Under the pieces are notes generated by a model, which ran no database searches, was not told the DNA's origin, and worked only from the letters and a program-made list of their open reading frames with translations. DNA of 64,000 bases, taken from IMG/VR virus record IMGVR_UViG_3300021963_006415, positions 28,632-92,631 of that record. One strand, given 5' to 3'. Position numbers and translations under genes: made by a program. Shown here piece after piece: positions 13,436 to 61,103 of this stretch. Source of the stretch: a virus. The first letter of the stretch is position 1. Every line of letters starts with the position of its first letter.

Positions 13436-16400
13436 TTATTGATTTTCTAATTCTAAAATTCTTTCCTCTAATTGTTCTATTTTTATAAGTAATTCTTTTA
13501 TAGCAGCTGTATTTAATGCTATTATTGCATTGTAATCTAATGATAATACATCGCTTAAATTATTTATATTTCCTACATTTTTTATTAAAAATGGAAATTC
13601 ATTTTGTACTTCTTGTGCTATGAATCCATATGAATCTCCCTTATCTGTCAATGGTGCAGTTATATCATTCCACAAAAATGATTTTGGATTTAACTTTTCA
13701 ATTTTTACTAATGGAGATTCCAAATCTCTTATATTAGTTTTTAATCTTTCATCCGAAGATGATAGAACGGCAGATGTATATAAAGCTCCATTTATTCTAA
13801 CATCTCCCAAAAATGCAGCACTATATGCAGTTCCACCTACTGTTGCAACCGGTCCGATTTGAGCAAAACCACCGGCTGATGATACAATCATACCATTTAC
13901 ACCAATAGAAGTTTTTTCTTCTGCTGATGTTATATCAATTGTAGGAGAACCTCCGGTGATACCAGTCCAAGCAAATTGACCAGAAAGTGTTACTGAACCA
14001 AATGTGAAAGCAATATATTGAGATGATATTGTTCTCGAAATATCTACAACAGCATAATAAGTTCCACCCGATGTTAATCCTGAAAATGGTACTGCTGCCG
14101 TTCCTGCTGTTATAGCTGGGTGGGTGTATGGTGATGTTGCGGATGATAAATAATCACGTTGAGAGAAAACCGTAACTGTTTTTGATGTAACATAAGAACC
14201 TCCCGATGTATATATTGTTACGGTAACTGTTTGTAGGGTAAGATTCTGAACACTTCTAAAATTTGCTAAAGTTTGATTCCATTGTGATTGACCTGGTACC
14301 GCAGTTCCCGTATATGGTACATTTACAATAATCGCAGTACCTCCTATTGTGAAGTTTCCAGTTGTGGCTGATGTACCAAAAGTATTACCTACAGTTTGTT
14401 GATAGTTAAAGCTACTAAATAGTGGATTTGCACTTGTATCGGTAGTACTTGGAAATGTCGCTGATGTAGATGTGCTATTTGTTGATAAACTATCTTTTGT
14501 AATTTTAATTTTTTCAACACCACCACTTGATAATGTTATGTTACCATCGTTATACAATATAGTTTGACTATTATTGGATGAAAGGGTTGTAGAACCAATC
14601 GTCCAACCACCAATAGTTCCCGATGTTGATTTTAAAACACCCGTTGGAGTTACACTAAATGGTGCGTTAGCAAATGTTATATTTCCTAAAGAAATTCCGC
14701 TTGAATTAGCTATAAAAATACTAGTAGTTCCACTACCAATAGAAATAGTTCCACCATTAAACGTTGAAGCATTCATAGTTCCGGTGATGGATAATGCACT
14801 TCCATTGAAAGTTAATTTATCTCCCAATGAAAATACATCGGTAGAACCGGATGCAAAATAAAATGGGGTATCGGTATTATTATAATTTCCTGTACCTACA
14901 AATATTTTTTTATTAGTACCATCCAATGTAATACCACCACTACCAACTTTAAATACAGAAGAAATATATCCAGCATTACCAGCTATAATTGGCGATGAAA
15001 TTGATGTTGATGTTATAAACGTACCACTACCACCAACCCAACCACCATTTGCTAATAGGTTTACGGAAGCACTTGCAACGGCTAAAGCGTTTGAATTTGC
15101 AGTAGCAATAGCTGCTGCTTGTGCGGCACTAGCTGCATTTGAACCAGAAGTAACGGCATTATTTGCGGCAGTTTGAGCAAATAGTTGGGCTGCAGATGCT
15201 GATGCCGCAGCATTATTTGCGGCTGTTTGCCCAGCTAATGTAGCTGCTGTTTGAGCTGCTGATGCTGAAATAGAACCCGATAAAGCTGCGTTTGAAGCGT
15301 ATAGTGAGCCAGATGATACTGCGTTTGAGCCAACAGTATTTGCATATGTTTGTGTTGCCGCATCTCCACCTGTAACACTAATAGAACCTTTTATTTCTAA
15401 ATTAGTTCCTGTCCATTTTATATATGAAGTACTTCCATTTACAATACTAAATTTAGAAAGATTACTATCTCTACCCAAAAATATACCATCATTTGCATAT
15501 CCTTGCGTTGTTTGGCCAACCGATAAATATGGATTTGTAGTGCCACCGGCAAGTGTGATATTTGCGGATGAAACTCCACCACTATTATTAGTACCAATAT
15601 TTAATGTACTTTGAACAAATGAATCTTCAAATAAACCTATTTTTGCTGCAACAAAGAAATCTTGTGTACCTAAGTTTTCCCAACCCGTTTGTGCAGTTTG
15701 GTTTGGTGAGCCATCGGCTACGTTTCCTGTTGTGGATGTATGTTGTCTAATTGCTGCATAATAGTTTTCATATGGTGCTACACCCGTTGGACTCCAAAGA
15801 ACCACATCTCTGCGGCCTGTTCCTGCGCCCGTACTAAATTGGTAAGCTCTGTTAGCTTCCCAAACTCCTGTGAATACAACACCCGGACCTGTTTGACCAT
15901 CTAATGTAACCGATACCGTATGTGTTTGAGAAACAGTTGCCGATGTACCGGCTGCATTTACATACACTACATTGAAAGTCACAATTGTTCCAGCGGTTGT
16001 TGTTGGTGTTGTTGGTGTTATTGTTGCACCACTATTAGTACCACCTGATAACGATGTTATTCTAAATGTTGAATTTGCGTATGGCGATGAATCATCGTAT
16101 GTGTATGTAGTACCTCCCTCAATTACACTAACAACAAATGAACCAGGCGTTCCATATGTTCCCGTATTACTTCTCGTTACAATTTGTGATGCAGGATTTA
16201 AGTTTATTACAACCCCACTTTCACCTTGCTTTATTTTTGAAGCTCGTATTGTTATGGTTTGTGTTTGACCCGTTGTACCTTCACTATCCGTATGCGTTAC
16301 AGTCAATGTTACCGATGCTTCATCTGCATTCATTACCGCCGATGTCATTGTAAGTGTATTACTACTTACAATTGGAGCGATTGAAAAGCCAGATGAAGAA

Positions 16401-19400
16401 GCAATAGCCATAGATGTAAATCTATTAGTTGTACCTTCTAAAGCCGTTATTGTAACGTTAGTAAGTGTGCCGGTTTGTGTACCAGCTGCATTTGCTGCAA
16501 CAGTTTGTGATTGTGGAGTTGCTGAAATCGTAACGCTTGGTACTGCTTTTTTAACTTTAGTTAAAGATATTGTATCACTTAAAGTTCTACTTTGTCCTTC
16601 CGAATCCGTAACTGATGCGGTAATTGCTACACTAGCAGCATTTGTTCCATTTGCTAAAGTTCTTCCTGCTAAAGTTACTAAACCTGTTGAATTATTTGTA
16701 ACAATGTTTGCTAAATCAGAGCTACTACCACTCAATAGTATTAATCCTAAATTTGATGTAGAACCATTGTACGTTTCTGCGATAGTTACAACCGCATTTG
16801 CAAAAGAATCAATTTGTTCGCCAGTTGATTTTGCTGAAACAGATTGTGCTTTATTTGTTGTTGATAACGTTAAAGATGGTGCTGCTGCTTTTGCCTTTGA
16901 ATACGTTACAACTTTTGTTATATCAGTTGAAGTTCCTCTACCATCTTTATATCTAACAACTAAACTTAAAGAACCACTATCAGCTGTTAATGATGTAATT
17001 CCATAAGTTGCGTCATCCGGCGTTGTATCATTTGGAGTACAATTTGTACCTGTTGCCGAAATTATATCAAATCTATTATTTGTTGATAATCCTTCTTCTC
17101 TTGTAATATCTTCACCACCTACTTTTACACTCACCGAACCACTTGTTGCAACGAATGAACCACTTGCTACCCAACCCGTAGAACGTGCTGGCAAAGTTGC
17201 GTTTTCGTTTGTTAAATTTACTGATATTTGAGATTCAGCAATAACCGATGATAGTGTAACTTCGTCATTATATGCGGTGCCATTTAAATCATATGCTGTA
17301 AATGTATATGTTTGTACGCCGGTACTATATTGGTAATTTGAGGATTGCCCAGCTGAAATTGTATAAGATGTAACACCATTTCCTTCATAGTTTGGTGCTG
17401 ATAAAGCAGGAACTCCACTACCGCTTGTTACAGTTATAGTATTTGTTAAACTTCCTAAGTTTAATCTTTTTGCTAATATTGTTATGGTTTGTGAAGATGG
17501 GATAGGCGATAAATCAGTCATTTTATAAAAAAACTGATTTGCATCCGATGTTGCTATTAATCCTTTACCCTTATCACCTTTTAATACTGCATCAATTGTT
17601 ACCGATGAAGTAAAATCTCCATCAACAGTATCATATTTAAAATCATAATGGGATTGTCCAAAATCATAAACATATCCACTTCCCGAAATTGGTGTTGCAC
17701 TATATGGATGTGTAGATGAAGTTACAAATAATCTATAAACAGTCGCATTTCCAATACTTTCTATTTCATGTAATGGTGGTGGTGTTCCAACTTCAGAGCC
17801 TGATGTGATATTAAATCCCTCATCTTCATATGATGGTAAATTTTGTCTTACCAAACGAATATCAATATAATCATCGACTATATCCGATTTGTATCTATCA
17901 TCCGGGTCAAATACAAAGCTATTTTTATCTGCCGTAGCATAAAATAATCTTGCAGGTGCACCTTGGTCTATTCTAAAAATTGTAAAGTATCTATTAACAT
18001 CTTCGCAACTGGCAGTATATGTAATTGCTCCAACAGTTACCCCTAAAGCAGAAGAACCTGTAAAGTTTGCTAAAGATAATGTTCTTGTATCAACATCGAC
18101 ATAATCTAATGTTCCGGGCTGCGGTGTTACTGTAATCAAATTTCCATTTACATCAACTGATTGTGATTGGAATGTAACAGAGCCAGTTAAACCTGTTTTT
18201 GTAAAATCAATTGTTACGAATTGTGGAAAAACAGATGCTGTTGAAAAGTTAAATGAATTATTAGAAACGTTTAATTGCAAATCTCTTCTAACATCAACAT
18301 CATTACCACCACTAAAAGTAAATTCTTCTTCTAATAAAACGGGAACGTAATTGTTATTTATATCGTATAACTCAAATTTAAAATCAAATGTTTCATTATT
18401 GATTTTAACAGGCACATTTACAGTCAATGTAATTTCATTTGGAGAAAAAGATGATTCTTGTGCCGCTCTTAAACTTATATCACTAATATGCCATACACCA
18501 CCCTTTACAACATATACTAAATTACCAACACCATCCGAATCTGGTTTAAAGTTTATTTGTTGTTTATCGTATTTTCTAAATTGAGTATTTGTTGTTAAAT
18601 CTCCAATTTTTTTTCCGTAGTTTGTTTCTAATGATGTTGGAGTAAACGCAGAACCACTCATATAAATTTCAATACCACCAAATGTATCAGCTGCCGCAGA
18701 TAATAGTGGTGTAAAATCCAATTGATATTCTGTATTCTTTGTGAAGTTTATTGATTCTTTATTATAGAACTTAAATAATCCAACCGATGAACTATAATCA
18801 CTTTGTGGTGTTAATAAAACCGATTTTAAAAGAGTTGTATTATCAACACTAAGATTTACGCCGGTTTCTATTGCCGATGATGTCCAAAATGATGATAATA
18901 TAGCGTTGGTAAATAAACCGGTTCTAACATTTAGTTGATTTGCAAAAGATGATGTTAATAATAACTCATTACTTTCTAATTGAACATCTTCTAATAATTG
19001 AAAATCTCCTAAATCATTTTTAGAACTCGCATAAACTTTGATTCGGTTTACATCACCACTAAATGTTTCTAAATCGGTAATATTAATTGTAGCAAATGAT
19101 GAATTGATTGCTGAATCGGTTAATGTAACAGTTGCATCATATGACATTGTATATGATGCCGATGTAAATGCGGTAACCGAATAATAATTTGGTAAAGATG
19201 AGCCTGTTATATAATATGGAACATCAACAAACGCTTTTTTGTTTGTTGTAACATCGGTTATAATTGGGGAGTATGATTTAGCTAATCCGTTTATTTGAAT
19301 GGTTTCTCTTTCCATTGATTCGGAAAATTGAGATAATCCATTTAAAGATAGTTCGTATCGTGATACTCCTTTGAACGTTCTATAATCTTCCCCCGCTGAT

Positions 19401-19969
19401 GGTAATGTTGGTGTACCATTTACTGAACCAGATATTGTTAATCTACTTACGTTTCTATTGTAGATTGGAAGTATTGATTCGCTTATATCGATTTTAGGTC
19501 TACGATAAAATCTTATTTTAGATGTATTTGCTAATATTGGGTTTACATTTATTTGCTTTTCCCATTTAACATTATATGTATCTTTCCAATTTTCAGGAAC
19601 AGGTATTGTAACTCCATTAAAATTATACTCACTTAATTCTCCTAATATTGTTATAGTGCAAGGACCAAAAGCAGTATCGGGGTATATGTAAACAGCAACA
19701 ACTTTAGAAGTTCCTTCAAAATATTCAGGAATACCTTCGCCTGGTTCGTGATAAACTATTTTACCTTGCGAATCTCTGATTTGAATTTTTACAATTGTAT
19801 CAGAAACCAATTCAGGAGAACCTTGAATAAGGAATGCGTTTTTACCTCCCGTAAAAGTATCGGGTAATTCTGTTATTTTAAAATATTTACTATTAGGGTC
19901 AGTATCGTTTACTAAAACATTAATTGTTTCTAAACTCTCATCAAAAAGGGTTTTCTTTAAAATTGCCAT
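13436..19969 (-). CDS. Large tail fibre/spike with C-terminal peptidase S74 intramolecular chaperone
   Basis: 2177 aa, S/T/G-rich beta repeats, Ala-rich coil, GGWTIG, C-terminal SSDERLKTNI...YGFIAQEV...LDYNAII and a coiled coil. Confidence 0.85.
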   Translation of the reverse strand: MAILKKTLFDESLETINVLVNDTDPNSKYFKITELPDTFTGGKNAFLIQGSPELVSDTIVKIQIRDSQGKIVYHEPGEGIPEYFEGTSKVVAVYIYPDTAFGPCTITILGELSEYNFNGVTIPVPENWKDTYNVKWEKQINVNPILANTSKIRFYRRPKIDISESILPIYNRNVSRLTISGSVNGTPTLPSAGEDYRTFKGVSRYELSLNGLSQFSESMERETIQINGLAKSYSPIITDVTTNKKAFVDVPYYITGSSLPNYYSVTAFTSASYTMSYDATVTLTDSAINSSFATINITDLETFSGDVNRIKVYASSKNDLGDFQLLEDVQLESNELLLTSSFANQLNVRTGLFTNAILSSFWTSSAIETGVNLSVDNTTLLKSVLLTPQSDYSSSVGLFKFYNKESINFTKNTEYQLDFTPLLSAAADTFGGIEIYMSGSAFTPTSLETNYGKKIGDLTTNTQFRKYDKQQINFKPDSDGVGNLVYVVKGGVWHISDISLRAAQESSFSPNEITLTVNVPVKINNETFDFKFELYDINNNYVPVLLEEEFTFSGGNDVDVRRDLQLNVSNNSFNFSTASVFPQFVTIDFTKTGLTGSVTFQSQSVDVNGNLITVTPQPGTLDYVDVDTRTLSLANFTGSSALGVTVGAITYTASCEDVNRYFTIFRIDQGAPARLFYATADKNSFVFDPDDRYKSDIVDDYIDIRLVRQNLPSYEDEGFNITSGSEVGTPPPLHEIESIGNATVYRLFVTSSTHPYSATPISGSGYVYDFGQSHYDFKYDTVDGDFTSSVTIDAVLKGDKGKGLIATSDANQFFYKMTDLSPIPSSQTITILAKRLNLGSLTNTITVTSGSGVPALSAPNYEGNGVTSYTISAGQSSNYQYSTGVQTYTFTAYDLNGTAYNDEVTLSSVIAESQISVNLTNENATLPARSTGWVASGSFVATSGSVSVKVGGEDITREEGLSTNNRFDIISATGTNCTPNDTTPDDATYGITSLTADSGSLSLVVRYKDGRGTSTDITKVVTYSKAKAAAPSLTLSTTNKAQSVSAKSTGEQIDSFANAVVTIAETYNGSTSNLGLILLSGSSSDLANIVTNNSTGLVTLAGRTLANGTNAASVAITASVTDSEGQSRTLSDTISLTKVKKAVPSVTISATPQSQTVAANAAGTQTGTLTNVTITALEGTTNRFTSMAIASSSGFSIAPIVSSNTLTMTSAVMNADEASVTLTVTHTDSEGTTGQTQTITIRASKIKQGESGVVINLNPASQIVTRSNTGTYGTPGSFVVSVIEGGTTYTYDDSSPYANSTFRITSLSGGTNSGATITPTTPTTTAGTIVTFNVVYVNAAGTSATVSQTHTVSVTLDGQTGPGVVFTGVWEANRAYQFSTGAGTGRRDVVLWSPTGVAPYENYYAAIRQHTSTTGNVADGSPNQTAQTGWENLGTQDFFVAAKIGLFEDSFVQSTLNIGTNNSGGVSSANITLAGGTTNPYLSVGQTTQGYANDGIFLGRDSNLSKFSIVNGSTSYIKWTGTNLEIKGSISVTGGDAATQTYANTVGSNAVSSGSLYASNAALSGSISASAAQTAATLAGQTAANNAAASASAAQLFAQTAANNAVTSGSNAASAAQAAAIATANSNALAVASASVNLLANGGWVGGSGTFITSTSISSPIIAGNAGYISSVFKVGSGGITLDGTNKKIFVGTGNYNNTDTPFYFASGSTDVFSLGDKLTFNGSALSITGTMNASTFNGGTISIGSGTTSIFIANSSGISLGNITFANAPFSVTPTGVLKSTSGTIGGWTIGSTTLSSNNSQTILYNDGNITLSSGGVEKIKITKDSLSTNSTSTSATFPSTTDTSANPLFSSFNYQQTVGNTFGTSATTGNFTIGGTAIIVNVPYTGTAVPGQSQWNQTLANFRSVQNLTLQTVTVTIYTSGGSYVTSKTVTVFSQRDYLSSATSPYTHPAITAGTAAVPFSGLTSGGTYYAVVDISRTISSQYIAFTFGSVTLSGQFAWTGITGGSPTIDITSAEEKTSIGVNGMIVSSAGGFAQIGPVATVGGTAYSAAFLGDVRINGALYTSAVLSSSDERLKTNIRDLESPLVKIEKLNPKSFLWNDITAPLTDKGDSYGFIAQEVQNEFPFLIKNVGNINNLSDVLSLDYNAIIALNTAAIKELLIKIEQLEERILELENQ

Positions 19970-50209: not shown

Positions 50210-50899
50210 TTAAATTAGATTAAATAACTCTGGTCTTTTATTTTTTAGTTCATTTAATTGTTCTTTTGTTAAATCCATATGTGTAAAGTCTGTTTCTTTA
50301 CTAAATAAAAACTTAAATCCTTTTATATTTTTATAATTTAAAAATAAATCATATATAAAATTACGATAAACAATATCAGGTTTAAAATTATAAACACCTC
50401 TAATTTGATTTATAAATCCATCTTTAGATATAACAACAACAACTCTACTATAATTAGAATTATCTATATCATATTCTCTAAGCTCTAAAAAATTTTGATA
50501 TGAATTCACTCTTCCACAATTATTCATTCTAAAAACCATTTCGGAACTATAATAGCAATTCAAATCAACCCAATATAATCCTATATTGTTTTTTCTATAA
50601 TCAAACAAAATATTATTATTTTCTATATAATTTTTTGATGTGTAAACTAATTTATTATTAATAACCCAATCTTTGTATAATTCTATTATATCGTTAATAG
50701 ATAATAACTCTAAGCCACCATATTTACCATTATTAACAAAATCTATATAATTTACAATTGGATAAACTATATCCGATACATATTTTGTTGATTTATGTGA
50801 TAGAGATATATTATCCGATTCAATTTTTTTTATAACGAAATCAGAATGCCTGTCGAAATGCGTTTTAATGTATTCTATATTTCTTATTATAGATGCCAT
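50210..50899 (-). CDS. Hypothetical protein, PcfJ-like C-terminal motif
   Basis: E...MNNCG...LELR...QIRGVYNFKP. Confidence 0.4.
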   Translation of the reverse strand: MASIIRNIEYIKTHFDRHSDFVIKKIESDNISLSHKSTKYVSDIVYPIVNYIDFVNNGKYGGLELLSINDIIELYKDWVINNKLVYTSKNYIENNNILFDYRKNNIGLYWVDLNCYYSSEMVFRMNNCGRVNSYQNFLELREYDIDNSNYSRVVVVISKDGFINQIRGVYNFKPDIVYRNFIYDLFLNYKNIKGFKFLFSKETDFTHMDLTKEQLNELKNKRPELFNLI

Positions 50900-51558
50900 T
50901 ATATTATTTTTTTATTATCAATTAATGAGTATAAAAAATGTGCAAAATTTAAATGACCATTAAATGAAAAGTGTGTATCCTTTATTAAACCATTCGTATG
51001 CTTATATATTGTTTCAAATGATGCGTATAGCTCATCATCATCTTCTAAAGACCATATGTAGCAAAACTTAACTTTGGTTTCGCTTAATAATCTTTTTTTT
51101 ATAAAATCAAATCTTTTTTTGTGTCTGTTTTTATAAAAAATATCATTTGAAAAATAATATTGAAAATTTAATATTGTTTCTATTTTATCTTTATCATTTA
51201 TACAATCTTTGTTCAAAATATTTTTAGCACCTTCATATGCTGATAATATGTGATGTATGTTATCATCAATAGGAACATCAATTCTTCCATATAAGGTTGT
51301 ATTTATTATAACAATATCATTATTTTGGATGGAATCAAAATTATCAATTATACTATCGAATATGTAGTCATTAGAAGCTCCATTTTTTCCAAAATTTTTA
51401 ACATCATAATTTAATAAATTACCTAAATGATTTGGCCAAATATCATCACCTTTATTCTTATATAAAGAATACTTCACACTAACATCGGATTTACAATTTA
51501 TATTACAACCATGACCAAATGTCATAGAATCTCCAAAAGTCCAAAGCACAGTACTCAT
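50899..51558 (-). CDS. SGNH/GDSL-like hydrolase/acyltransferase
   Basis: FGDSMTFG, WP, GKNGASN, DTHFSFNGH. Confidence 0.8.
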   Translation of the reverse strand: MSTVLWTFGDSMTFGHGCNINCKSDVSVKYSLYKNKGDDIWPNHLGNLLNYDVKNFGKNGASNDYIFDSIIDNFDSIQNNDIVIINTTLYGRIDVPIDDNIHHILSAYEGAKNILNKDCINDKDKIETILNFQYYFSNDIFYKNRHKKRFDFIKKRLLSETKVKFCYIWSLEDDDELYASFETIYKHTNGLIKDTHFSFNGHLNFAHFLYSLIDNKKII

Positions 51559-52166
51559 ATGAATCTTTTAATATTTTTTTTACAAAATTGAACATCTATA
51601 TCATATCTTTTTAAACTCTTTTTAAATAATTGTATTTCTGATGAATTGATTATATCGAAATCATTTTCTTTTAAAAAATTTATTACATCATCTATATAAT
51701 TAAAACTATTTAAATATAAATCTTCAAATAAAGATACTTCTACCTTGCCTCTTTTTATTATTGATATTTTTTCTCCAAATGATTTTAAAATTTTAAAATC
51801 CTCACCTTGAGCATCGCAATGAAAATAATCTACATAATTAATTTTATTTTGATTTAAAAACGCATCCATTCTTATAACATCTACCAATATTTTATCTACA
51901 TACTTTATTTTACTATTTTGATTAGCAAATTGAGTTAATTGATTTAAAGAAGAAGATAATCCATCACTTGCTAAATTAAAAAAGGAAGTTCCGTTAAAAT
52001 CACTAACCGCTTTTTCTATTATATTAACATTCTTATATCTTTTAAATTTGTTTTTTAATAAATTAGCATATATTGGATTTGGTTCAAAACACCAAACGTT
52101 TGCATTATCTAAAAAACCAATTGTGTGGCTTCCATCATTAGAGCCTATTTCAATTATATTTTTCAT
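51555..52166 (-). CDS. FkbM family methyltransferase
   Basis: IEIGSNDG, FEPNP, AVSD, HCDAQGED. Confidence 0.85.
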   Translation of the reverse strand: MKNIIEIGSNDGSHTIGFLDNANVWCFEPNPIYANLLKNKFKRYKNVNIIEKAVSDFNGTSFFNLASDGLSSSLNQLTQFANQNSKIKYVDKILVDVIRMDAFLNQNKINYVDYFHCDAQGEDFKILKSFGEKISIIKRGKVEVSLFEDLYLNSFNYIDDVINFLKENDFDIINSSEIQLFKKSLKRYDIDVQFCKKNIKRFI

Positions 52167-52861
52167 ATCAGTTTTCCGGATTTAAATAAATGCCTATTCA
52201 ACATTTTTTCAGCCATATGATATACTCCATTTTTTTCTAAATTATCATAAGATGGGTTACTATCAAATAAATAATTAATATTATTAAAATATAAATTAAT
52301 GTATTGTTGATTTAATGTAATTGGTGGAACACCATTGTACCTTTCAATAAAAAAATCATAATTCTTGTCTATAATTTTCAACACATCAGAATAAGATTTA
52401 TTAACGTTTAAATAATCATTAGTCGCCACTATACACGTGTTATTTAATTCGTTAAATTTTAGAGGGATGTTAGAATAACGTTTATATATTTCAGTAAAAT
52501 GCTCTGTTTGGGTTTCACTTAAAGGATGTTTGTAACCTAAGTTCAGTTTATCACCATCTACGATGTTCATTAATTTACTAAAATCTTCAACTAATAAATC
52601 ATTATCTAAATGTATAAATGGAAAATCAATTGTGGATAATACTTTTAATTTAGGATATGACCATAACGCGTTTCGATTATATTTTTCATCTATCTCAAAT
52701 TTAATCCATTTATATTTTAGACCCACCTGTTCGAAATAATCTTTATCGGAATATATCAAAGGAATGATGTTTTGACTATTTAAATTTTCAATAGAGTATT
52801 TTAAATATATTTCAGTAGTTTGTTTAAGTCTAATTGGTAAATATGTAAATACAACTTGCAT
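52163..52861 (-). CDS. Putative nucleotide-diphospho-sugar transferase-like protein
   Basis: WSYPKL...PFIHLDND (DxD). Confidence 0.55.
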   Translation of the reverse strand: MQVVFTYLPIRLKQTTEIYLKYSIENLNSQNIIPLIYSDKDYFEQVGLKYKWIKFEIDEKYNRNALWSYPKLKVLSTIDFPFIHLDNDLLVEDFSKLMNIVDGDKLNLGYKHPLSETQTEHFTEIYKRYSNIPLKFNELNNTCIVATNDYLNVNKSYSDVLKIIDKNYDFFIERYNGVPPITLNQQYINLYFNNINYLFDSNPSYDNLEKNGVYHMAEKMLNRHLFKSGKLI

Positions 52862-54114
52862 TATAATAAAGATTTTTTAATTAAAAATTCAGTTTTCAAA
52901 CCTCCATCAATTATCAAATCCAATAATGAATTTTCATTTTCTATTTTATACATTAGTTTGTTATGTACCAAATCGGACCATTCTTTACATAATCTATAAT
53001 TTTCATCAAAATTATGTAAAAAATCTTTAATAAAACATGCAAACATTTTTGAGTTTGCTCTAAATTCCTTAGATTCTTTATAAAAAGGATGCGGTCTTAC
53101 ACCTAACATAGATTGAACTATATCTAACGGATAATTATGCGTTGAAACAAAAGGTATCGAAGCTAATAGCAAGCTTAATGTTTTTTCTGAAAGATATTGT
53201 GATGTAAAATCTCTATCACTCCAAGACCAACTTTCGCATAATATTTGCATTTTGGATTTTGGAAGAACTCTAAAAAATACATCCATATATCCTTGGTGAT
53301 TTGCTATATAACTAATATCATCAAAATCTTTTTCACCATATATAGAATTGGTTTTTATATGAGTTATTTTTGGAGAATACTTTTCATATGCTTGATTTTG
53401 TAAAGCATTTGTATGTTGTAAATACAACCTATCATTTTTTAATTTACTTAATTCATTTATAATATTAATTCTGTTTATTTTATGATTCTTAATACTGTAC
53501 ATTAAATCATAATCAAAGTTTAATTTATCATATACTTGCTTAAACTCATAATACCATCTAACATTCCAATTTGTATTCCATTGAAATATTGTGTTTGTTA
53601 ATACATAATAAAAATTTGGGTACTGCTGTTTTATCGATTCGTTTAAAAAAAAATTATCTGTAATTATATGATGCTGACTCAATTGAGATATCAAAGATTC
53701 TATTTCTAACCATTTTTCATCAAAGTAATTAACATCTTTAGTTTGTAATATTTTTTCAGTTCTAAAATATGTTATTATCCATTTTTGATTTTTTGGACAA
53801 TTTTTTAATAAATTTATAAATATTTTTAAAATTTGTTGAGTTTCTCTTTCCATATACTGCATATCTGGCAGAATAGCACCTATTTTTGGGTCATTTTTCC
53901 CATATGAAAATGCCGCAAAATAATCTAATATATGGATACCATCTTCTTCAAAACTCATCTCTTGCTTAAAAATGAATTCTAATTTTGTATTATTGTACTT
54001 ACAAAATATACTTCCCTCATTATTATCTTTTATATCAAAGATTCTATTTGTAGTATTATGCGCTAATTTATAAAAAATAGATTTATTATAATAATGATGT
54101 ATGTATATTTTCAT
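52861..54114 (-). CDS. Hypothetical protein, glycosyltransferase-like C-terminus
   Basis: ILCES...YLSEKT...IPFV motif typical of GT-B-like phage proteins. Confidence 0.4.
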   Translation of the reverse strand: MKIYIHHYYNKSIFYKLAHNTTNRIFDIKDNNEGSIFCKYNNTKLEFIFKQEMSFEEDGIHILDYFAAFSYGKNDPKIGAILPDMQYMERETQQILKIFINLLKNCPKNQKWIITYFRTEKILQTKDVNYFDEKWLEIESLISQLSQHHIITDNFFLNESIKQQYPNFYYVLTNTIFQWNTNWNVRWYYEFKQVYDKLNFDYDLMYSIKNHKINRINIINELSKLKNDRLYLQHTNALQNQAYEKYSPKITHIKTNSIYGEKDFDDISYIANHQGYMDVFFRVLPKSKMQILCESWSWSDRDFTSQYLSEKTLSLLLASIPFVSTHNYPLDIVQSMLGVRPHPFYKESKEFRANSKMFACFIKDFLHNFDENYRLCKEWSDLVHNKLMYKIENENSLLDLIIDGGLKTEFLIKKSLL

Positions 54115-54725
54115 TAAATTAAATTATTTAAAATATTAGAATATGCAGATTCATTTATTCCCATTTTTTTCAATATTTCATTTGCTATATAGTAATGGCC
54201 TTTTACATTTGGGTGCCCAATCGAATCTATTGAATATTTATTTTTTATCATATGTTCTTTATTAATTAATAAAGATTTATCCCAATTTATTTCCGAATAT
54301 ACTGATAAATTTTTTACGCTAATATCTAAATCCATATAATTAAAAAAGAAATAATTAATTTTATTATTTTCTAAAAAATTTTGTAATAAGAACATATAAT
54401 GTAAAGTGTGTTTACTAGCCATAGGTTCAAATTTTGGAAATAATTCAGTCCAATCGTAAGGAGTAACTAAACGTTCACTTCCATCAATATCACAATGAGT
54501 TCTTCTAGATGGTCCGGACCATTGTAATATTACTAAATCTGGATTAGATTTTAATTTTAGTAAATCTTCTAACGCAGTATGCAATATCCAATCATTGCCA
54601 ACGCTACATTTTGAAGAATTTGTAATATCACAATTAAAATAACTTTTTAATAATGATGGATATGAATTTTGTTTATTTACCCCATAACCATAAGTAACTG
54701 AACATCCAATAGAATAAATAAACAT
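54114..54725 (-). CDS. SGNH/GDSL-like protein
   Basis: IGCSVTYG, GND, QWSGPSR, GHPNVKGH. Confidence 0.75.
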   Translation of the reverse strand: MFIYSIGCSVTYGYGVNKQNSYPSLLKSYFNCDITNSSKCSVGNDWILHTALEDLLKLKSNPDLVILQWSGPSRRTHCDIDGSERLVTPYDWTELFPKFEPMASKHTLHYMFLLQNFLENNKINYFFFNYMDLDISVKNLSVYSEINWDKSLLINKEHMIKNKYSIDSIGHPNVKGHYYIANEILKKMGINESAYSNILNNLI

Positions 54726-54727
54726 TT

Positions 54728-55216
54728 TTAAATTAATTTAGATTCTTCATTTTTAATTCTTAAACGATTATAACTATTTATATCAAATAAATTTTCATAG
54801 TATTGAATTTCAATATTTAATATCTTTGATAGTGTTTCTATTTCTTTAATCCATTTAAAGATATCACTTGTGCATAAATCTATAATATTTTTTGGCGGTT
54901 GTTTATAGCAATATTTATTATTAGAATTATACCCCTCTACTTTTGAAAAATAAGTTTGATATGAATGAGATTCTATCAACTCTTTTAAATTTTTTCTACT
55001 TAAAAGTATAACTTCATCAAATGATTTTGCTAATTCTAAATTATTGGGGTGGTGAGAAATTATCGTTTTAACAACTGAATTATTTTGATTATTATAAATA
55101 ACTCTATTAGTTCCATCAAATGGTTCAAAGAATGGTTTTAAATTTTTTTCATTTGCCAACCTATACATCAAAGATGTTGAGCCTGTTCTTGGTAAGGCTA
55201 TTATTAATATTTTCAT
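54728..55216 (-). CDS. Sulfotransferase-like (P-loop) protein
   Basis: IALPRTGSTSL (5'-PSB), FEPF, LSRKN...S, YYE. Confidence 0.7.
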   Translation of the reverse strand: MKILIIALPRTGSTSLMYRLANEKNLKPFFEPFDGTNRVIYNNQNNSVVKTIISHHPNNLELAKSFDEVILLSRKNLKELIESHSYQTYFSKVEGYNSNNKYCYKQPPKNIIDLCTSDIFKWIKEIETLSKILNIEIQYYENLFDINSYNRLRIKNEESKLI

Positions 55217-55776
55217 AAAAAAGATTTTTCTTTTTTCATAGGTATAAATCTATTTTCTTCCTCCGATAACCAAATATTTAAAGCATATCGTTCACCTTTG
55301 GTCACAGGCAAAACACCGTGAAAAATTTCATTTCCTATAAAAGATATACCATCTCCTTTAGAAAGTTTTATAAGTTTTATATTATTTAAATTTTCAAAAT
55401 GATAGTTGTTACTAACCTTATTTGTTATAGCAAATCTTCCATCTTCATACTCATCATTTAAAGTTATAACAATTGTTAAAGAACTACTGGAATCTTTATG
55501 TAAATTTAAATATCTTCCATCATAGTATGCAGTTAAACTTACGTTTATACTTTTTACTTTTAAAGATTCAAAATCCATCCATAAATTCCAATCCCCCGCT
55601 TTATATTTACTTTCTAATATTTTATATACTTTTAGCTTCAATTCCTCATCATAAATTCTTCTACAATCCCAATTTTCATTTGGATTATAATTAAATGGTA
55701 CTCCTATTTCTAATGCTTTTTTTAGAAAATAAGAACATTCATCATCATTAAAAAAATTATTTATTGTATAGTTCAT
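55213..55776 (-). CDS. 2OG-Fe(II) oxygenase
   Basis: LHKD...LNDEYEDG...HGVLPVTKGERY. Confidence 0.88.
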   Translation of the reverse strand: MNYTINNFFNDDECSYFLKKALEIGVPFNYNPNENWDCRRIYDEELKLKVYKILESKYKAGDWNLWMDFESLKVKSINVSLTAYYDGRYLNLHKDSSSSLTIVITLNDEYEDGRFAITNKVSNNYHFENLNNIKLIKLSKGDGISFIGNEIFHGVLPVTKGERYALNIWLSEEENRFIPMKKEKSFL

Positions 55777-56591
55777 ATTAGATGTGATTTTTTTACTGCA
55801 TCGTAATTTAATAAATTATTATTATCTATGAAACTAAATAATTCATCCGCAATAAATTTATATCCATTACTATTTGGGTGTTTACCCACAATATCCGACC
55901 AAGACTCATTATCTTCCCATACATCATTTTGTTTAGTATCTATTAGTAAGTCAGCCATTGTTTTGGTTTGATAACCCCAATATCGATTGATACCTATTAA
56001 ATTGGTTTTATTAATCAATGTATCTATATTTTTACTAATCATAGTATCAAACGCATCACAAAAAAGATATCTAATTCCTAACTCTTTGAACATAAACTGA
56101 AGATGAAGAATATAGTTTTGATTCACTATATCGTAGTATGCATCATTAAATAAATTAGCTATGTAGTAATTTCTAAAATTTTTCTCTGCTTTGTTATATT
56201 TTACACTATCTCCACTTATTCCATCAAATATATTTTTAAAAATATGTCCCTTACTTTTATATCGTTTACCCCATATAAAAAAATCATCTTCATTGTGAAA
56301 AAAAGGTAAGGGGTCTCTTAACGATGATGACCACATAACAACAACAAAATCATCTTTGGTGATAATTTCATTTTTCAGTTGATAAAAAATTGTATTAAAT
56401 ATTGCATTATTTGAGAAACCACCAACTCCATTATTTTTAACCTCACAACCAAGCGATTCAGACAGGTATTTTGGCCAACAATATTTTTGTCTTATTTTTG
56501 TTTTTTCTTCGGGAATATTGGTAGTATCTTCTTCTCTAATATTCCCACCAACTCCTTCTGTCCAGCTATCACCATATGTAAATAATTTCAT
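55773..56591 (-). CDS. SGNH/GDSL-like protein
   Basis: YGDSWTEG, WP, GGFSN, KHPNSNGY. Confidence 0.78.
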   Translation of the reverse strand: MKLFTYGDSWTEGVGGNIREEDTTNIPEEKTKIRQKYCWPKYLSESLGCEVKNNGVGGFSNNAIFNTIFYQLKNEIITKDDFVVVMWSSSLRDPLPFFHNEDDFFIWGKRYKSKGHIFKNIFDGISGDSVKYNKAEKNFRNYYIANLFNDAYYDIVNQNYILHLQFMFKELGIRYLFCDAFDTMISKNIDTLINKTNLIGINRYWGYQTKTMADLLIDTKQNDVWEDNESWSDIVGKHPNSNGYKFIADELFSFIDNNNLLNYDAVKKSHLI

Positions 56592-56594
56592 ACA

Positions 56595-57335
56595 CTATAT
56601 GATTGATAAGTTATTTTTAATAGAACCATCAATATACTTATTAACAAACTCTACTAACTCCGGTGTTCTCTTTACTTTAGAAGTTATTGAATTTTGATTT
56701 ACATGCATTAATTTAAAATCAACATTAAATTTATTAGACATATATGATTCAAATTCATACAATTTATCAAAATCAAATGTTTTAACTTTTACTCTATCGT
56801 TTAGAATCCAATGATATTGTGATGATAATCCAAATGTGTGAATTTGAAATCTATCATTGAACGCCTCATTAGTCAAATATTTTTGCTTAAACCCTAAATC
56901 GATTAATAATTTTTCAAAGAAAGATTTTCTAATATCTTGAGAGGAATAAATGTTTGTATATTCCGAATAGTTTTTTTTAATAAAATCAATTACAAACGAA
57001 TTATCTATATTTGTTAAATGATAAATAGTTTCTTCATCCGGATGTAGTTCACACATACCAGCTATAAAAAATCTCCAAGCGGATATAAACCTATCGGTAG
57101 AATCTCTTATTATTGAAACAAATTCAAAATCAGAACCAAAGCTAGCTATTAAAGAATGAAGTTTAGAATGTATGTGATTTCTTTTATTTTTCATTCTGAT
57201 ATTAGACCTAATCGAATTTTCCCATAAAGTATTTGGGAACTTTAAATCAAAACCATAAAATATACAGGATTCCTCTACAGACCAAGAAGCATTTTTAGGT
57301 ATTGGAATAAATGCAACTTTATCATTTATAATCAT
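56595..57335 (-). CDS. Sulfotransferase family 2-like protein
   Basis: FIPIPKNASWSV, H, IIRDSTDRFISAW (3'-PB), HVN. Confidence 0.78.
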   Translation of the reverse strand: MIINDKVAFIPIPKNASWSVEESCIFYGFDLKFPNTLWENSIRSNIRMKNKRNHIHSKLHSLIASFGSDFEFVSIIRDSTDRFISAWRFFIAGMCELHPDEETIYHLTNIDNSFVIDFIKKNYSEYTNIYSSQDIRKSFFEKLLIDLGFKQKYLTNEAFNDRFQIHTFGLSSQYHWILNDRVKVKTFDFDKLYEFESYMSNKFNVDFKLMHVNQNSITSKVKRTPELVEFVNKYIDGSIKNNLSII

Positions 57336-57336
57336 A

Positions 57337-57888
57337 TTAAATTAAACTTTTTGCGTTTTTAATTTTATTTTTTATTTGAAACCCCAAACTTAAAGTTATT
57401 CTAGGTTTATCACCAATAACAGGCGTAGAACCATGCATTACTTTTCCCGCAACACACCTCCAAACCATTTTTTCTTTAAGCTCGTTTATTTTTCCATTAT
57501 AAATTGAATGACCGCCTTCGTTTGGATACGATATTATTACATTATATCTAATGTGTGTATAACCTTCTAAATTTGGGTCACTATGTAGATGGATATTACC
57601 GCCGGCTTTATTTATACCAATACCATCTTCAAAATTTGGTTCTGTAACCCATTCATTAATTTTTTCTAAATTTATTATTCTATTTTTTATAGAACTAACT
57701 AACTCAAATATATTAGTATGAAATTCTTTTATAACCAAATACTTTCTAGAACCATATGGTGATGATTTTGATTCATTTACAGGAAAAATAAACTCATTTT
57801 CTTTTATCCAATTTAAAAAAGTTAATTGTTCACTATCGGATATAAAGTTTTCATACCCATATGTATCATATAGCTCGACTCGATTCAT
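57337..57888 (-). CDS. 2OG-Fe(II) oxygenase
   Basis: HLHSD...RYNV...EGG...HGSTPV...RITLSLG. Confidence 0.8.
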   Translation of the reverse strand: MNRVELYDTYGYENFISDSEQLTFLNWIKENEFIFPVNESKSSPYGSRKYLVIKEFHTNIFELVSSIKNRIINLEKINEWVTEPNFEDGIGINKAGGNIHLHSDPNLEGYTHIRYNVIISYPNEGGHSIYNGKINELKEKMVWRCVAGKVMHGSTPVIGDKPRITLSLGFQIKNKIKNAKSLI

Positions 57889-57908
57889 AACTAATTAAAT
57901 TAAATTAT

Positions 57909-58025
57909 TTATTGAGTAACATCCGTATATATAATAGATGCAACTTCTTGCATTATAGTTGCTATGCTAGAATTTGTAGATGAGCTTGTTAATACTACTT
58001 CTGATGATATGATTTTTGGTTTCAT
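57909..58025 (-). CDS. 38-aa Ser/Thr-rich peptide (unannotated)
   Basis: Manual translation MKPKIISSEVVLTSSSTNSSIATIMQEVASIIYTDVTQ; fills the gap between 58044 and 57888. Confidence 0.65.
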   Translation of the reverse strand: MKPKIISSEVVLTSSSTNSSIATIMQEVASIIYTDVTQ

Positions 58026-58043
58026 TTTATTAAATTATTTATA

Positions 58044-59573
58044 TTATAGTTTAGGTATTGGGCCATAGCAAAAAGAGCAACTATTACAGTAATAATAAGC
58101 ACATGAGCTCGTCCAACACCAACCATAGCATGGATTGTGTTGGATAAACGATAATCCTAAATTTTCATCTGCTAAAGGTAAAAACAAATCATTCTCTTCC
58201 ACATCTATATCATATACTTTTCTATTTGCATATACCACTTCTAAATTTGTTATTTTAGATTTAACCAATGTATTATTATTATAATCATAAAACACAATGG
58301 AATCATTTACTCTAAATTCATTTGTATGAGAGAAAATTGTTCTAAGAGTATCATATTCTTCTATTAACATATCACTATGTGGCAAATCTTCATAAATCAA
58401 CCCATTTTCTAGAGTTACTTTTATCATTAAAGATTCCTTAGTTTCACTAACTAAATTAACTATTGTAGTGCCTGTTATACCAAACGTAGTTAAATCTTCG
58501 GCAAAACTTCCAGAATTTACAGTTGGTATATACAATGGTTCGCCTGTTTCCGATATATCATTTGCCGGCACCCAAGGTAATGTAACTGTTTTTAAAACAT
58601 CATTTTCAAGTACTTGATTCGGAAATTTCATTGAACCATCTGCGTATAATATCTTAGTATCATCATCAAAAATGTATGAAATACCCATTCTTTGGTTAGG
58701 CGATTTACTAATCCATAAAGGTCTTGCTTCCTGATTCATTAAACCATTAGAATTATATAATGTATCCCAACTATTAGCTTTAATAGGTGATGTCATTATA
58801 TATGAACCCAAATGTAAACAATTTAATGTAGAACCATATATAATATCTAAACTTCTGATAACACCCATTTTTTCTTCAACCACATTATCAGTATTTGAGT
58901 GAAACTCTTCTAAATACTCTAAAGATGTTAACGAAGCTTTTAATGTTGCTAAATCTTCTAAAGAATTTACTTTATATAATTTTGGATATTGTACATAATC
59001 CGTATTTGGATATCTAGTCTTTACAATATAGTTTGGAGCATCTCCATCTGTTAAATGTAATTCTATCAAATTATCTACATTAAGACTTGTATCGGTTGAT
59101 GAGTTATAATATATTTTTGTTGAAAAAGATTGATTAGAAACTGCTCTATGAAAATTCACTTTATCTTTTGCATAACTTTCATCAATAATAGCTGTTGTAT
59201 CATATGATGTTCTTAATATTAAAGTATCATCTGCATCTTCTACATATGGAACTGTTATTGAATTTTTTGCAACTTCATATGCGGTAAATGTACCACCAAT
59301 TTCGTTTGCAACCTCTTCCAATTTATCTTTTAAAGTTAGTTTTGGAATATGCGTATCGAATCTTGTGGCTCTTTCTGTATTTATGAAATTACCATCTGTA
59401 TAAATAAAATGTAATTTAGATATAGAGTTATCTATTAAAAATTGTTTAAAAGATACCCAATCTAAATCAGGCACAATTATATTATGCACATCTACATTAG
59501 TATTTGTTTCTACAATTTTTAAGTTACCATTGTTATCTTTAACAAAGTCAGTTCCAATTATTACGGCTTTCAT
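58044..59573 (-). CDS. Circularly permuted ATP-grasp-like ligase + Hint domain + C-terminal six-Cys peptide
   Basis: GTDF...KIVETNTN, NYIVK, YLEEF; Hint IFDDDTKILYADGS...VYDIDVE...HN; tail PCYGWCWTSSCAYYYCNSCSFCYGPIPKL. Confidence 0.75.
   Translation of the reverse strand: MKAVIIGTDFVKDNNGNLKIVETNTNVDVHNIIVPDLDWVSFKQFLIDNSISKLHFIYTDGNFINTERATRFDTHIPKLTLKDKLEEVANEIGGTFTAYEVAKNSITVPYVEDADDTLILRTSYDTTAIIDESYAKDKVNFHRAVSNQSFSTKIYYNSSTDTSLNVDNLIELHLTDGDAPNYIVKTRYPNTDYVQYPKLYKVNSLEDLATLKASLTSLEYLEEFHSNTDNVVEEKMGVIRSLDIIYGSTLNCLHLGSYIMTSPIKANSWDTLYNSNGLMNQEARPLWISKSPNQRMGISYIFDDDTKILYADGSMKFPNQVLENDVLKTVTLPWVPANDISETGEPLYIPTVNSGSFAEDLTTFGITGTTIVNLVSETKESLMIKVTLENGLIYEDLPHSDMLIEEYDTLRTIFSHTNEFRVNDSIVFYDYNNNTLVKSKITNLEVVYANRKVYDIDVEENDLFLPLADENLGLSFIQHNPCYGWCWTSSCAYYYCNSCSFCYGPIPKL
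58134..58673 (-). other. Hint (intein-like) domain, residues ~301-480
   Basis: Block A xFxxxTxIxxADGSxK, block F KVYDIDVE, terminal His-Asn; no endonuclease motifs. Confidence 0.8.
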
Positions 59574-59590
59574 CAGTTATTTCTTTTTGT

Positions 59591-59599
59591 TATAAATAT
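59591..59599 (-). promoter_or_regulatory. Putative late-promoter motif ATATTTATA
   Basis: 17 nt upstream of the ATP-grasp-Hint ATG. Confidence 0.6.
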
Positions 59600-59606
59600 T
59601 AATATT

Positions 59607-60242
59607 TTAAATTAAACTTACTTTTTCTTTTACATATTCAAACCCAACATTACCGGCTATTACTATTCTATCTTTAGTAGAATTAGGCGAATTATTTGGA
59701 GAATGCTCTAATGTTCCATCCATAACAATCAGGTCACATACTTCCGGCATTATATAATATCTTTTACCTTCTTTACCCCCAATAATCAATGTACCCTCAT
59801 TGTTTTCTAAATTATCAGGCATCTGCAAATAATATACAAATGTGTAATTTGGATAAAACAATCCATCTTTTTTTTGTAAATCTACATGATTATGTAGGGA
59901 TACTTCCTCATTTTTTTTGAAATTAGTTTGTTTTGGTTTTCCCTTTCTAACAACATTTATCCAACACCCAAATTTGATTATATTAAAATTCATTTTATTC
60001 GTTTTTGCTAAAGATGCACATTCCGCTAAACAAAGTTTTACAGCTTGCTCCATAAAATTATTTGGAATAAAATCTTTTTCTAAATCAAAAAAGTCGCCAC
60101 CGAAAAAAGAATAATTATCCCTCCTTGCATAACTATTTATTAGATAATCTTCACATTCTTTTAAAACTAATTTTTGAAAATCATATGAATCTATTTTTGT
60201 CTTATAGACAAATATCCCATCTTCAAACGTAATTTTTTCCAT
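59607..60242 (-). CDS. Putative 2OG-Fe(II) oxygenase
   Basis: WINV...LHNH...FVYYL...EHSP...DRIVIAGN. Confidence 0.75.
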   Translation of the reverse strand: MEKITFEDGIFVYKTKIDSYDFQKLVLKECEDYLINSYARRDNYSFFGGDFFDLEKDFIPNNFMEQAVKLCLAECASLAKTNKMNFNIIKFGCWINVVRKGKPKQTNFKKNEEVSLHNHVDLQKKDGLFYPNYTFVYYLQMPDNLENNEGTLIIGGKEGKRYYIMPEVCDLIVMDGTLEHSPNNSPNSTKDRIVIAGNVGFEYVKEKVSLI

Positions 60243-60244
60243 AT

Positions 60245-60541
60245 CTAAATAGTTGTTTTTTGTTTTTTACTTTTTAAGGTAAGAGATTTTACATATGGCT
60301 CTTCCACTATATTCCATTTATCCAATGGACAACTACCATATTGGTCTGTAAATATTTTTTTTGATAGAGGACATCCACACTTACCACATAAAGCAGACCA
60401 TTTTTTATTATGAATTATTTCCTTACGCATATCACATCCCATACAAATATTCAGCCTAAGTTCTGCTAATTCTTTTTGCATTTTATTTGGGTTTTCTGCT
60501 GTTACCCAAGCTTTTAATATTTCTATTAAATCAAATCCCAT
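60245..60541 (-). CDS. Small Cys-rich metal-binding protein
   Basis: RLNICMGC...CGKCGC...CPLDKW. Confidence 0.7.
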   Translation of the reverse strand: MGFDLIEILKAWVTAENPNKMQKELAELRLNICMGCDMRKEIIHNKKWSALCGKCGCPLSKKIFTDQYGSCPLDKWNIVEEPYVKSLTLKSKKQKTTI

Positions 60542-60542
60542 T

Positions 60543-61103
60543 TTATAATAAAGTTTTTTTAATATTTTTTATTTGTTTTAATTTCAACCAATTTACTAAA
60601 GAGTATCTTATACCTGAAGTTATTGGTTTAACCCTATGTACCACTTCCGAAGGAAATATAAATAGATTTCCTACTCCTTTTTCTAATGTAATTTCTTTAT
60701 TTGTTAAAAGTTGAAACTCACCATCCATATATTCATCATTCAATTGCAGGACTATTGTATAAAATCTATCTTTAAATACCGTATCATTTGAATCGGCATG
60801 CCAATCAAAGAAATCGCCTTTTTCATATTTTGTAAACTGAAAGGTATCCAAAGATGGTTCATATCCTTTTATATTCTCAACATGCTCTTTGACTTTATCT
60901 AAAATTTTATTACCCACTATTCCAATATCTTCTACAAAAGAAACCTTAGATTTTCTCGTTTCTTTTTTTCTTTGAATATTATCAGGGTGATATACTTCCG
61001 CATTACTTAATTCCGAATCAATGTTATAATTGTTTATCAACAAATCACACTCATCCTTTTCTAAAAATTTCGGAATAGTTAGTATTTTATAATCATTTTG
61101 CAT
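60543..61103 (-). CDS. 2OG-Fe(II) oxygenase (prolyl hydroxylase-like)
   Basis: RKS, FQFTKY, WHAD, LNDEYMDGE, FPS..HRVKPITSGIRYSLV. Confidence 0.9.
   Translation of the reverse strand: MQNDYKILTIPKFLEKDECDLLINNYNIDSELSNAEVYHPDNIQRKKETRKSKVSFVEDIGIVGNKILDKVKEHVENIKGYEPSLDTFQFTKYEKGDFFDWHADSNDTVFKDRFYTIVLQLNDEYMDGEFQLLTNKEITLEKGVGNLFIFPSEVVHRVKPITSGIRYSLVNWLKLKQIKNIKKTLL

Follow-up and report, generated by a model that had tools for sequence, protein, structure and literature searches.

P0001, a phage-encoded ATP-grasp/Hint fusion protein with a conserved His-Asn at the end of its Hint domain and a predicted releasable Cys-rich tail

P0001 is a 509-amino acid (aa) protein encoded by a 64,000-nucleotide stretch of viral DNA (IMG/VR record IMGVR_UViG_3300021963_006415, positions 28,632 to 92,631; hereafter, the window). 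It joins an ATP-grasp-type domain, a Hint domain, and a short Cys-rich tail in a single chain. The Hint domain lacks the residues of intein N-terminal chemistry and ends in a nearly invariant His-Asn pair (HN), and we consider it probable from this pattern of conservation that the domain acts as a one-sided asparagine-lyase release module, with a logic closest to that of PT-HINT and bacterial intein-like (BIL) domains. We favor a single reaction because the terminal HN is the only strongly selected feature of the domain and has one known role in the Hint fold, namely formation of a succinimide and breakage of the bond that follows.

Under the proposed mechanism, the absence of both a position-1 nucleophile and a TxxH motif would preclude an N-terminal (thio)ester, so that there would be neither splicing nor a cut on the N-terminal side, and the Hint domain would stay attached to the ATP-grasp ligase. 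Asn480 would cyclize to a succinimide, aided by His479 and probably by Asp462, and the N480-P481 bond would break. The predicted cleavage, of whatever rate and trigger, would leave a 54.5-kDa ligase-Hint protein and free a 29-residue, six-Cys tail (3.37 kDa) whose first residue, Pro481, would carry a new alpha-amino end.

The analysis draws on two sets of P0001 homologs, one of 152 close relatives and one of 262 representatives. Residue counts are based on 227 full-length homologs that reach down to approximately 20% identity, while an alignment of 142 homologs provided the family profile, the input for AlphaFold (AF2), and the column counts for the conserved Hint blocks. In total, the family is present on at least 251 IMG/VR contigs.

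Fold and residue pattern of the Hint domain

The Hint fold of residues 301-480 is far above chance. When the family profile was compared with PDB sequences, the leading match was the KlbA intein (2jmz; E 1.2e-8, profile positions 290-450), followed by other inteins and Hedgehog. The AF2 model of P0001 has a predicted local distance difference test score (pLDDT) of 90.7 and a predicted template modeling score (pTM) of 0.86, and a Foldseek search with this model reached E values of about 1e-7 against a RecA mini-intein (Mtu RecA, 2in0), the Hedgehog Hint, and BIL2. Similarly, a VIA-wide comparison of residues 298-480 matched the NpuDnaB intein (4o1r) with Z 15.6 over 139 residues at 2.2 Å, along with BIL2 of Tetrahymena (6tmm; Z 15.1), Hedgehog (15.1), and a C. 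thermocellum BIL (2lwy; 15.0); in the superposition, intein residue 1 coincides with model residue 300/301, and the last Asn of the intein with N480. Finally, hhalign aligned the P0001-type Hint with canonical Hint domains encoded downstream in relatives at 98.7% probability (E 2e-16), setting Cys1 opposite I301 and the block F His opposite D462 and matching the two HN pairs to each other. The block correspondences are therefore fixed by three independent alignments. A first-pass annotation, made from the sequence alone, had called a Hint domain over an interval that corresponds exactly to residues 301-480 of P0001, and the profile, model, structure, and hhalign routes all agree that it is a true member of the fold. 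By comparison, searches of P0001 with Pfam, PHROGs, and NCBIfam gave a sub-threshold Pfam match to Intein_splicing (E 0.018, 15.3 bits) as their sole match.

Most of the domain (139 of 183 residues) aligns to mini-inteins. The remaining length is concentrated in a family-specific insert that adds about 35-40 aa between block A and block B (approximately residues 332-365), which is well folded, differs in position from the usual endonuclease insertion site, and may contact the ligase domain. Because this insert accounts for the extra length of a 180-aa domain, the earlier call that a homing endonuclease is absent holds.

The residues that begin intein chemistry are missing. Position 1, which is Cys, Ser, or Thr in inteins, is occupied by Ile in P0001, as first annotated; across the 227 homologs the same column contains Ile (96), His (39), Lys (17), Gly (13), and others. 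None of them carries Cys at residue 300 or 301. Ser or Thr occurs at one of these two residues in 18/227, including 13 with Ser or Thr at 301 itself, none of which has a credible TxxH. Block B had likewise been described as degenerate, and the alignments agree: P0001 reads DLPHS at this location, and a credible TxxH is present in 0/227. The Asp beside the Thr position (D396) is kept in 115/142 homologs, and the His position is variable, with H399 in only 8/142. The absence of a first nucleophile and of TxxH makes the N-terminal acyl shift to a (thio)ester impossible, and splicing and N-side cleavage are thereby excluded.

At the other end of the domain, the +1 residue is Pro481, again in agreement with the initial description. 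Among 226 homologs, this position is mostly small (Ala 50, Gly 40, and Pro 39, together 129/226), as expected for bare Asn cyclization, which does not require a nucleophile there; Cys, Ser, or Thr is found in 19, of which five are Cys. The Hint domain is present in every full-length family member, and no ligase joined directly to a tail, as an intein-free allele or spliced product would be, occurs among the full-length homologs; shorter matches are fragments, so this survey is non-exhaustive. The lack of Cys1, of a credible TxxH, and of an endonuclease, the scarcity of +1 nucleophiles, and the fixation of the domain in the family all bear out the earlier view that it is not a selfish intein.

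A non-canonical route to splicing should nevertheless be considered, because the top PDB profile match, KlbA, is a class 2 intein with Ala at position 1 and because most family members carry Cys at +2 or +3. In a reaction resembling that of class 2 or class 3 inteins, a downstream Cys could act as the first nucleophile, so that the ligase would be joined to the tail and the Hint domain excised. This is extremely improbable. Class 2 splicing needs both TxxH, which is absent, and Cys at +1, which is as rare as noted above, while the WCT motif of class 3 is also absent and the relevant block F column (F:4, position 455) holds Asp, Glu, Ser, Thr, or Asn rather than Cys. The missing ligase-tail product among homologs speaks against it as well.

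The terminal His-Asn pair had been reported as intact in P0001, and the same is true of the family, in which HN is present in 220/227 homologs. Asn480 is found in 225/227 (99.1%) and His479 is 96.5% conserved. Ranked among all 509 positions, N480 is the sixth most conserved and H479 the twelfth; every position above N480 lies in the N-terminal domain, which makes N480 the top position within the Hint domain and HN its sole strongly conserved feature. On these sequence comparisons, we take HN to be under strong selection. Neither relatives with the Cys1, TxxH, and +1 Cys/Ser/Thr of a splicing intein nor a loss of HN conservation emerged across the homologs, and the first-pass interpretation therefore stands in this respect.

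One component of that interpretation does not. The Asp of block F had been listed as part of the retained cleavage machinery, and D455 (F:4) is indeed present in P0001, but Asp occupies this column in only 28/142 homologs. The conserved block F residues are instead E459 and D462, the latter replacing the usual His at F:13 (Asp in 97 and His in 25 of 142 homologs).

The Cys-rich tail and the junction after His-Asn

The sequence that follows HN differs from the rest of the protein in composition and in evolutionary behavior. The P0001 tail contains six Cys and one Lys and is rich in aromatic residues, whereas the 480-residue body contains a single Cys. In the family, everything after HN varies, and the variable segment always starts right after an HN. 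Cys-rich tails are present in 162 members, with lengths of 21-68 aa (median 31) and 4-12 Cys; the Cys count is even (6, 8, or 10) in 146 of them. A Lys lies within the last three residues in 129 of the 162, and all 130 short tails examined (≤45 aa) contain at least one Lys. The tails share a conserved Cys framework, whose loops are hypervariable and aromatic-rich.

Some relatives extend beyond the tail. In 22 members, it is followed by a Peptidase_S74 domain, which exceeds the Pfam cut-off in P0160 and P0171; a hidden Markov model of these S74-like extensions did not match the S74 domain of the window's own fiber protein. In approximately 11 members, the tail is instead followed by a canonical Hint domain that starts with Cys1 and ends in HN. 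These downstream Hints score 64.5 bits against Intein_splicing and up to 76.7 bits against PT-HINT. Because the downstream modules belong to self-cleaving families, the sequences indicate that, in a sizeable minority of relatives, self-cleaving modules of two different kinds flank the Cys-rich segment, which thus lies between two putative autoprocessing sites.

Other architectures also occur. One to three canonical Hints directly follow HN in 15 members, and a few members have short tails. In P0243 and P0263, canonical Hints intervene and a Cys-rich segment again appears after the HN of a Hint. Some members (P0225, P0227, P0247, P0255, P0265, and P0267) carry two to three tandem PT-HINT-type Hints downstream of the degenerate Hint, separated by gaps of 0-5 residues and ending in one to two Lys.

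The fate of the penultimate His is associated with that of the cargo. His is lost in 3/11 members without cargo versus 3/215 with cargo (Fisher p 0.0016); that is, three of the six His-less members are also cargo-less.

The tail also evolves faster than the body. Identity at non-Cys tail positions falls to 70% when the body is 95% identical, to 46% at 85%, and to 12% at 60%. Among the four closest genes, nonsynonymous divergence (dN) is 0.10-0.34 in the tail versus 0.01-0.11 in the body, and synonymous divergence (dS) is 0.54-2.3 versus 0.02-0.53, higher in the tail in 5/6 pairwise comparisons, although 29 tail codons provide small numbers. For example, dS climbs toward the 3' end in the comparison of L003 with L004 (0.02, 0.10, 0.54). 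The joint elevation of dN and dS suggests that tail cassettes are swapped by recombination and that point mutation is not the only process at work. A diversity-generating retroelement was considered as a source of the variability and rejected, as the window contains no template-like repeat of the tail DNA. Overall, these patterns suggest that the tail is a separate, fast-evolving product, and its high variability suggests that it functions in conflict or recognition.

Several observations weigh against release of a peptide by Asn cyclization. The usual helpers of intein C-terminal cleavage are altered, as the block F His is mostly Asp and the F:4 Asp is variable. The tail is disordered in the AF2 model (pLDDT 35-55) and shows no sign of being placed for cleavage. 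Pro at +1 is reported to slow C-terminal cleavage in engineered inteins, a caveat raised in the first-pass annotation; it is weakened here by the occurrence of Pro at +1 in 39/226 homologs. Moreover, 7-8 members retain HN despite short or non-Cys tails, and the 15 members in which a canonical Cys1 stands straight after HN have no cargo in between, an arrangement that peptide release alone does not explain.

Some of these features would fit an unlikely alternative in which nothing is cleaved. The Hint domain would then serve the ligase as an adaptor, whether structural or regulatory; the tail would remain in place to bind metal (Zn or Fe-S) or sense redox state; and HN would be needed for folding or contribute to a His/Cys metal site. 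H479 adjoins C482 and C486, the tail holds a CxxCxxC motif, and Cys clusters in a reducing cytoplasm usually bind metals. The divergence of the assisting block F residues and the packing of the ligase and Hint domains as one confident unit in the model, given its pTM, are also consistent with a permanent adaptor. Against this, it is Asn rather than His that is the more conserved residue (225/227 versus 220/227). As a ligand for metals, Asn is poor, and Hedgehog and other Hints that do not cleave at the C-terminal side can do without it. The wide spread in Cys number and spacing (4-12 Cys over 21-68 aa), the hypervariable, aromatic-rich loops, and Cys counts that are mostly even rather than multiples of four also speak against this alternative. 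The second self-cleaving module after the tail in relatives and the loss of His alongside cargo argue in the same direction.

Retention of HN where a canonical Hint or a very short tail follows suggests, on the other hand, that cutting, or the C-terminus so created, has a value of its own. Cleavage could then occur with no peptide as its product: the tail would be a removable pro-segment of the ligase (an autoinhibitory plug or a folding aid), or the C-terminal succinimide left on the ligase-Hint protein would be the functional outcome. Peptidase_S74, which follows the tail in some relatives, is classically a discarded chaperone and would suit such a role. We regard this possibility as very improbable, since hypervariable sequence on a conserved disulfide-like framework, exchanged in cassette-like fashion, is not expected of a segment that plugs a highly conserved active site; the conservation of that Cys framework and of a near-terminal Lys across the family is also at odds with a discarded segment.

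We thus return to one-sided release of the tail as the preferred reading. The first-pass annotation had proposed a domesticated release switch, and this proposal is supported in part: the domain is non-selfish, and comparative evidence (cargo after HN, a second self-cleaving module, and loss of His with loss of cargo) supports a release function. The part assigned to the block F Asp is set aside.

Probable ligase domain, enzyme island, and source phage

The features of P0001 and its surroundings are collected in Table 1. The N-terminal domain (residues 1-295) resembles ATP-grasp enzymes of the glutathionylspermidine synthetase, YgiC, and glutathione synthetase type. VIA-wide returned YgiC with ADP (Z 9.5), GspS synthetase (9.2), and a glutathione synthetase-like protein (8.6), scores that are modestly above background; Foldseek matched YjfC, the leads in the ESM Atlas are ATP-grasp proteins, and Pfam gave no match. 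Near-invariant polar residues of the domain include D9, E22, N24, R121, D131, K185, and R240, which may correspond to ATP-grasp catalytic residues. The domain is probably an active amide ligase.

Table 1. Location of P0001, its domains and key residues, and selected neighboring features in the window
Feature	Coordinates	Strand	Basis
ATP-grasp / Hint / Cys-rich tail fusion protein P0001, 509 aa (whole gene)	58044..59573	-	Open reading frame (ORF) list and translation; homolog collections
ATP-grasp-type amide ligase domain (probable), residues 1-295	58689..59573	-	VIA-wide, Foldseek, ESM Atlas
Degenerate Hint domain, residues 301-480 (180 aa)	58134..58673	-	Profile match, AF2 model, Foldseek, VIA-wide, hhalign
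Ile301 at Hint position 1 (Cys/Ser/Thr in inteins)	58671..58673	-	hhalign sets canonical Cys1 opposite I301
Family-specific insert of ~35 residues between blocks A and B (~residues 332-365)	58479..58580	-	Unaligned in hhalign; high pLDDT
Block B remnant DLPHS, residues 396-400, TxxH lost	58374..58388	-	Alignments to KlbA and canonical Hints
Asp462 at the block F His position (F:13)	58188..58190	-	hhalign correspondence
His479-Asn480, predicted asparagine-cyclization site, scissile bond N480/P481 (Asn480 codon 58134..58136)	58134..58139	-	Conservation
Cargo tail, residues 481-509 (29 residues), C-x3-C-x4-C-x4-C-x2-C-x2-C, ends PKL	58047..58133	-	Translation
Micro-ORF, 38 aa, directly downstream of the P0001 gene	57909..58025	-	Homologous ORF in related loci
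Zinc-ribbon-like protein, 98 aa, six Cys	60245..60541	-	In 71/80 loci; weak DUF6171 match
Conserved enzyme island (2-oxoglutarate (2OG)-Fe(II) oxygenases, sulfotransferase-like, SGNH/DUF6071-like, others) with shared C-terminal tag	50210..61103	-	Family counts, annotation
Mre11-like phosphoesterase (Metallophos) fused to Rad50-like AAA_23/SMC ATPase, 1047 aa	20228..23371	-	
Fiber-like protein, 2177 aa, Peptidase_S74 intramolecular chaperone domain at end	13436..19969	-	Peptidase_S74, E 3e-14

The P0001 gene lies within a conserved island of enzyme genes, which we examined in 80 related loci. The 2OG-Fe(II) oxygenases are present in 78/80 loci and a 246-aa sulfotransferase-like protein in 69/80; SGNH/DUF6071-like and further proteins also belong to the island. 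Proteins of the island families share a C-terminal tag, K-[S/T/K]-[L/I]-[I/L]-COOH, that is not found on flanking families. It is carried by 154/168 members of the main oxygenase family and by 66/72, 70/75, 68/76, and 70/76 members of other island families. In the window, 14 consecutive genes spanning the island end in K/x-[S/T/K]-[L/I/F]-[I/L]; examples are KTLL, KTTI, VSLI, KSLI, LSII, SHLI, SKLI, and KSLL.

Two small genes lie near the P0001 gene. The zinc-ribbon-like protein features a conserved C..C...C-x2-C-x-C...CP pattern and bears the shared tag; it usually adjoins the P0001-type gene in related loci, and here a 211-aa gene lies in between. The micro-ORF begins 18 nucleotides past the stop of the P0001 gene. 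Since a homolog of 37-50 aa occupies the same place in 79/80 loci, it is a real, unannotated micro-gene. The conserved arrangement suggests joint action of the ligase, the tail, and the island; the ligase and the neighboring enzymes may modify the tail.

One form of such cooperation, which we consider quite unlikely, is that cleavage is followed by ligation. The Hint cut would unmask the alpha-amine of the tail as a nucleophile for the fused ATP-grasp ligase, which would either close the peptide head-to-tail or join it to a carboxylate. Candidate carboxylates would be the tail's own C-terminus and the K-[S/T]-[L/I]-[I/L]-COOH ends of the neighboring enzymes. In relatives whose cargo is followed by a Cys1 Hint, a thioester would lead to the same outcome.

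The window belongs to a 92.6-kb virus record with an estimated completeness of 49%. All of its genes are on one coding strand, the guanine-cytosine content is about 30%, and its source is a large uncultured tailed phage. The best cultured match of the Mre11/Rad50-like protein is in Microcystis phage Mel-JY01 (41.5% identity). The fiber-like protein ends in the same type of domain, Peptidase_S74, that follows the Cys-rich tail in some P0001 relatives. Outside the metagenomic collection, no relative of P0001 was matched by tblastn in 50,697 deposited phage records, none was found in GTDB genomes by a pattern scan of limited sensitivity, and the only hits of a BFVD fold search were other viral proteins with Hint domains, none of which resembles P0001 over its full length.

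Comparison with known Hint and peptide systems

The PT-HINT domains of polymorphic toxins stand directly before a swapped C-terminal module and are predicted to release it by autoproteolysis (PMC3482391). The P0001 Hint resembles PT-HINT (PF07591) in that it precedes a polymorphic, recombination-swapped C-terminal module, ends in HN, and is predicted to release the module; furthermore, bona fide PT-HINT domains occur downstream in P0001 relatives. In contrast to PT-HINTs, it has no PF07591 match, lacks the Cys1 and TxxH that they keep, and is part of a phage cytoplasmic ligase fusion with a Cys-rich peptide of ~30 aa, rather than a toxin domain, as cargo. No trafficking or secretion domain was reported in P0001 by Pfam, PHROGs, or NCBIfam, nor an immunity gene by the island annotation, neither of which is a specific search for signal peptides or immunity proteins. 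The type A BILs share the fold (Z 15.0-15.1) and are also non-splicing Hints with a C-terminal HN that occur in hypervariable proteins. They keep an N-terminal Cys or Ser as well as block B and can cut at both ends, whereas the P0001 Hint keeps the C-terminal cut at most. It is a member of neither group.

Canonical mini-inteins provide the best structural matches and share the terminal His-Asn and the predicted succinimide chemistry. Unlike them, the P0001 Hint lacks Cys, Ser, or Thr at position 1 as well as TxxH, a +1 nucleophile, and a homing endonuclease, and there is no intein-free allele; rather than being a mobile element, it belongs permanently to its host protein. Hedgehog/Hog Hints are similar in fold (Z 15.1) and are likewise domesticated domains whose one-sided autoprocessing matures a cargo, but their polarity is opposite: the Cys1 and TxxH of Hedgehog act on a cargo at the N-terminal side, and there is no terminal HN.

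From the perspective of the cargo, P0001 resembles those precursors of ribosomally made, post-translationally modified peptides (RiPPs) that have enzyme-like or fused leaders, in which a short, hypervariable, Cys-rich core ends a much larger conserved protein amid tailoring-type enzymes. To our knowledge, a Hint domain serves as the leader protease in no RiPP class, and literature searches found no paper that describes an ATP-grasp protein fused to a Hint-type leader protease. Queries combining ATP-grasp, Hint, and phage, Hint and RiPP, or Hint and cyanophage likewise returned nothing relevant, and a description of the ligase-Hint-peptide layout was found in neither the papers nor the curated families searched. 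Some relatives also recall split-intein circular ligation of peptides and proteins (SICLOPPS), as their cargo lies between a Hint that ends in HN and a Hint that starts with Cys1; the two Hints of these relatives, however, are separate complete domains rather than halves of one intein. If the cleave-and-ligate scheme is true, these relatives would be a natural counterpart of engineered SICLOPPS, and the scheme itself would be a new pathway, encoded by viruses, to disulfide-rich peptides that are modified or cyclic.

In summary, natural Hints are known as splicing inteins, as two-sided cleavers of the BIL and PT-HINT types, and as Hedgehog-type N-side processors. A family present on more than 250 viral contigs that keeps only C-terminal Asn cyclization would represent a clean case, found in nature, of a Hint limited to a single reaction, and it would supply many natural variants for protein engineering of tag release. 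More broadly, the comparison points to large aquatic phages that make small, rapidly diversifying Cys-rich peptides from a ligase-linked precursor encoded in a conserved enzyme island, a capacity that is new to the papers and curated families searched.

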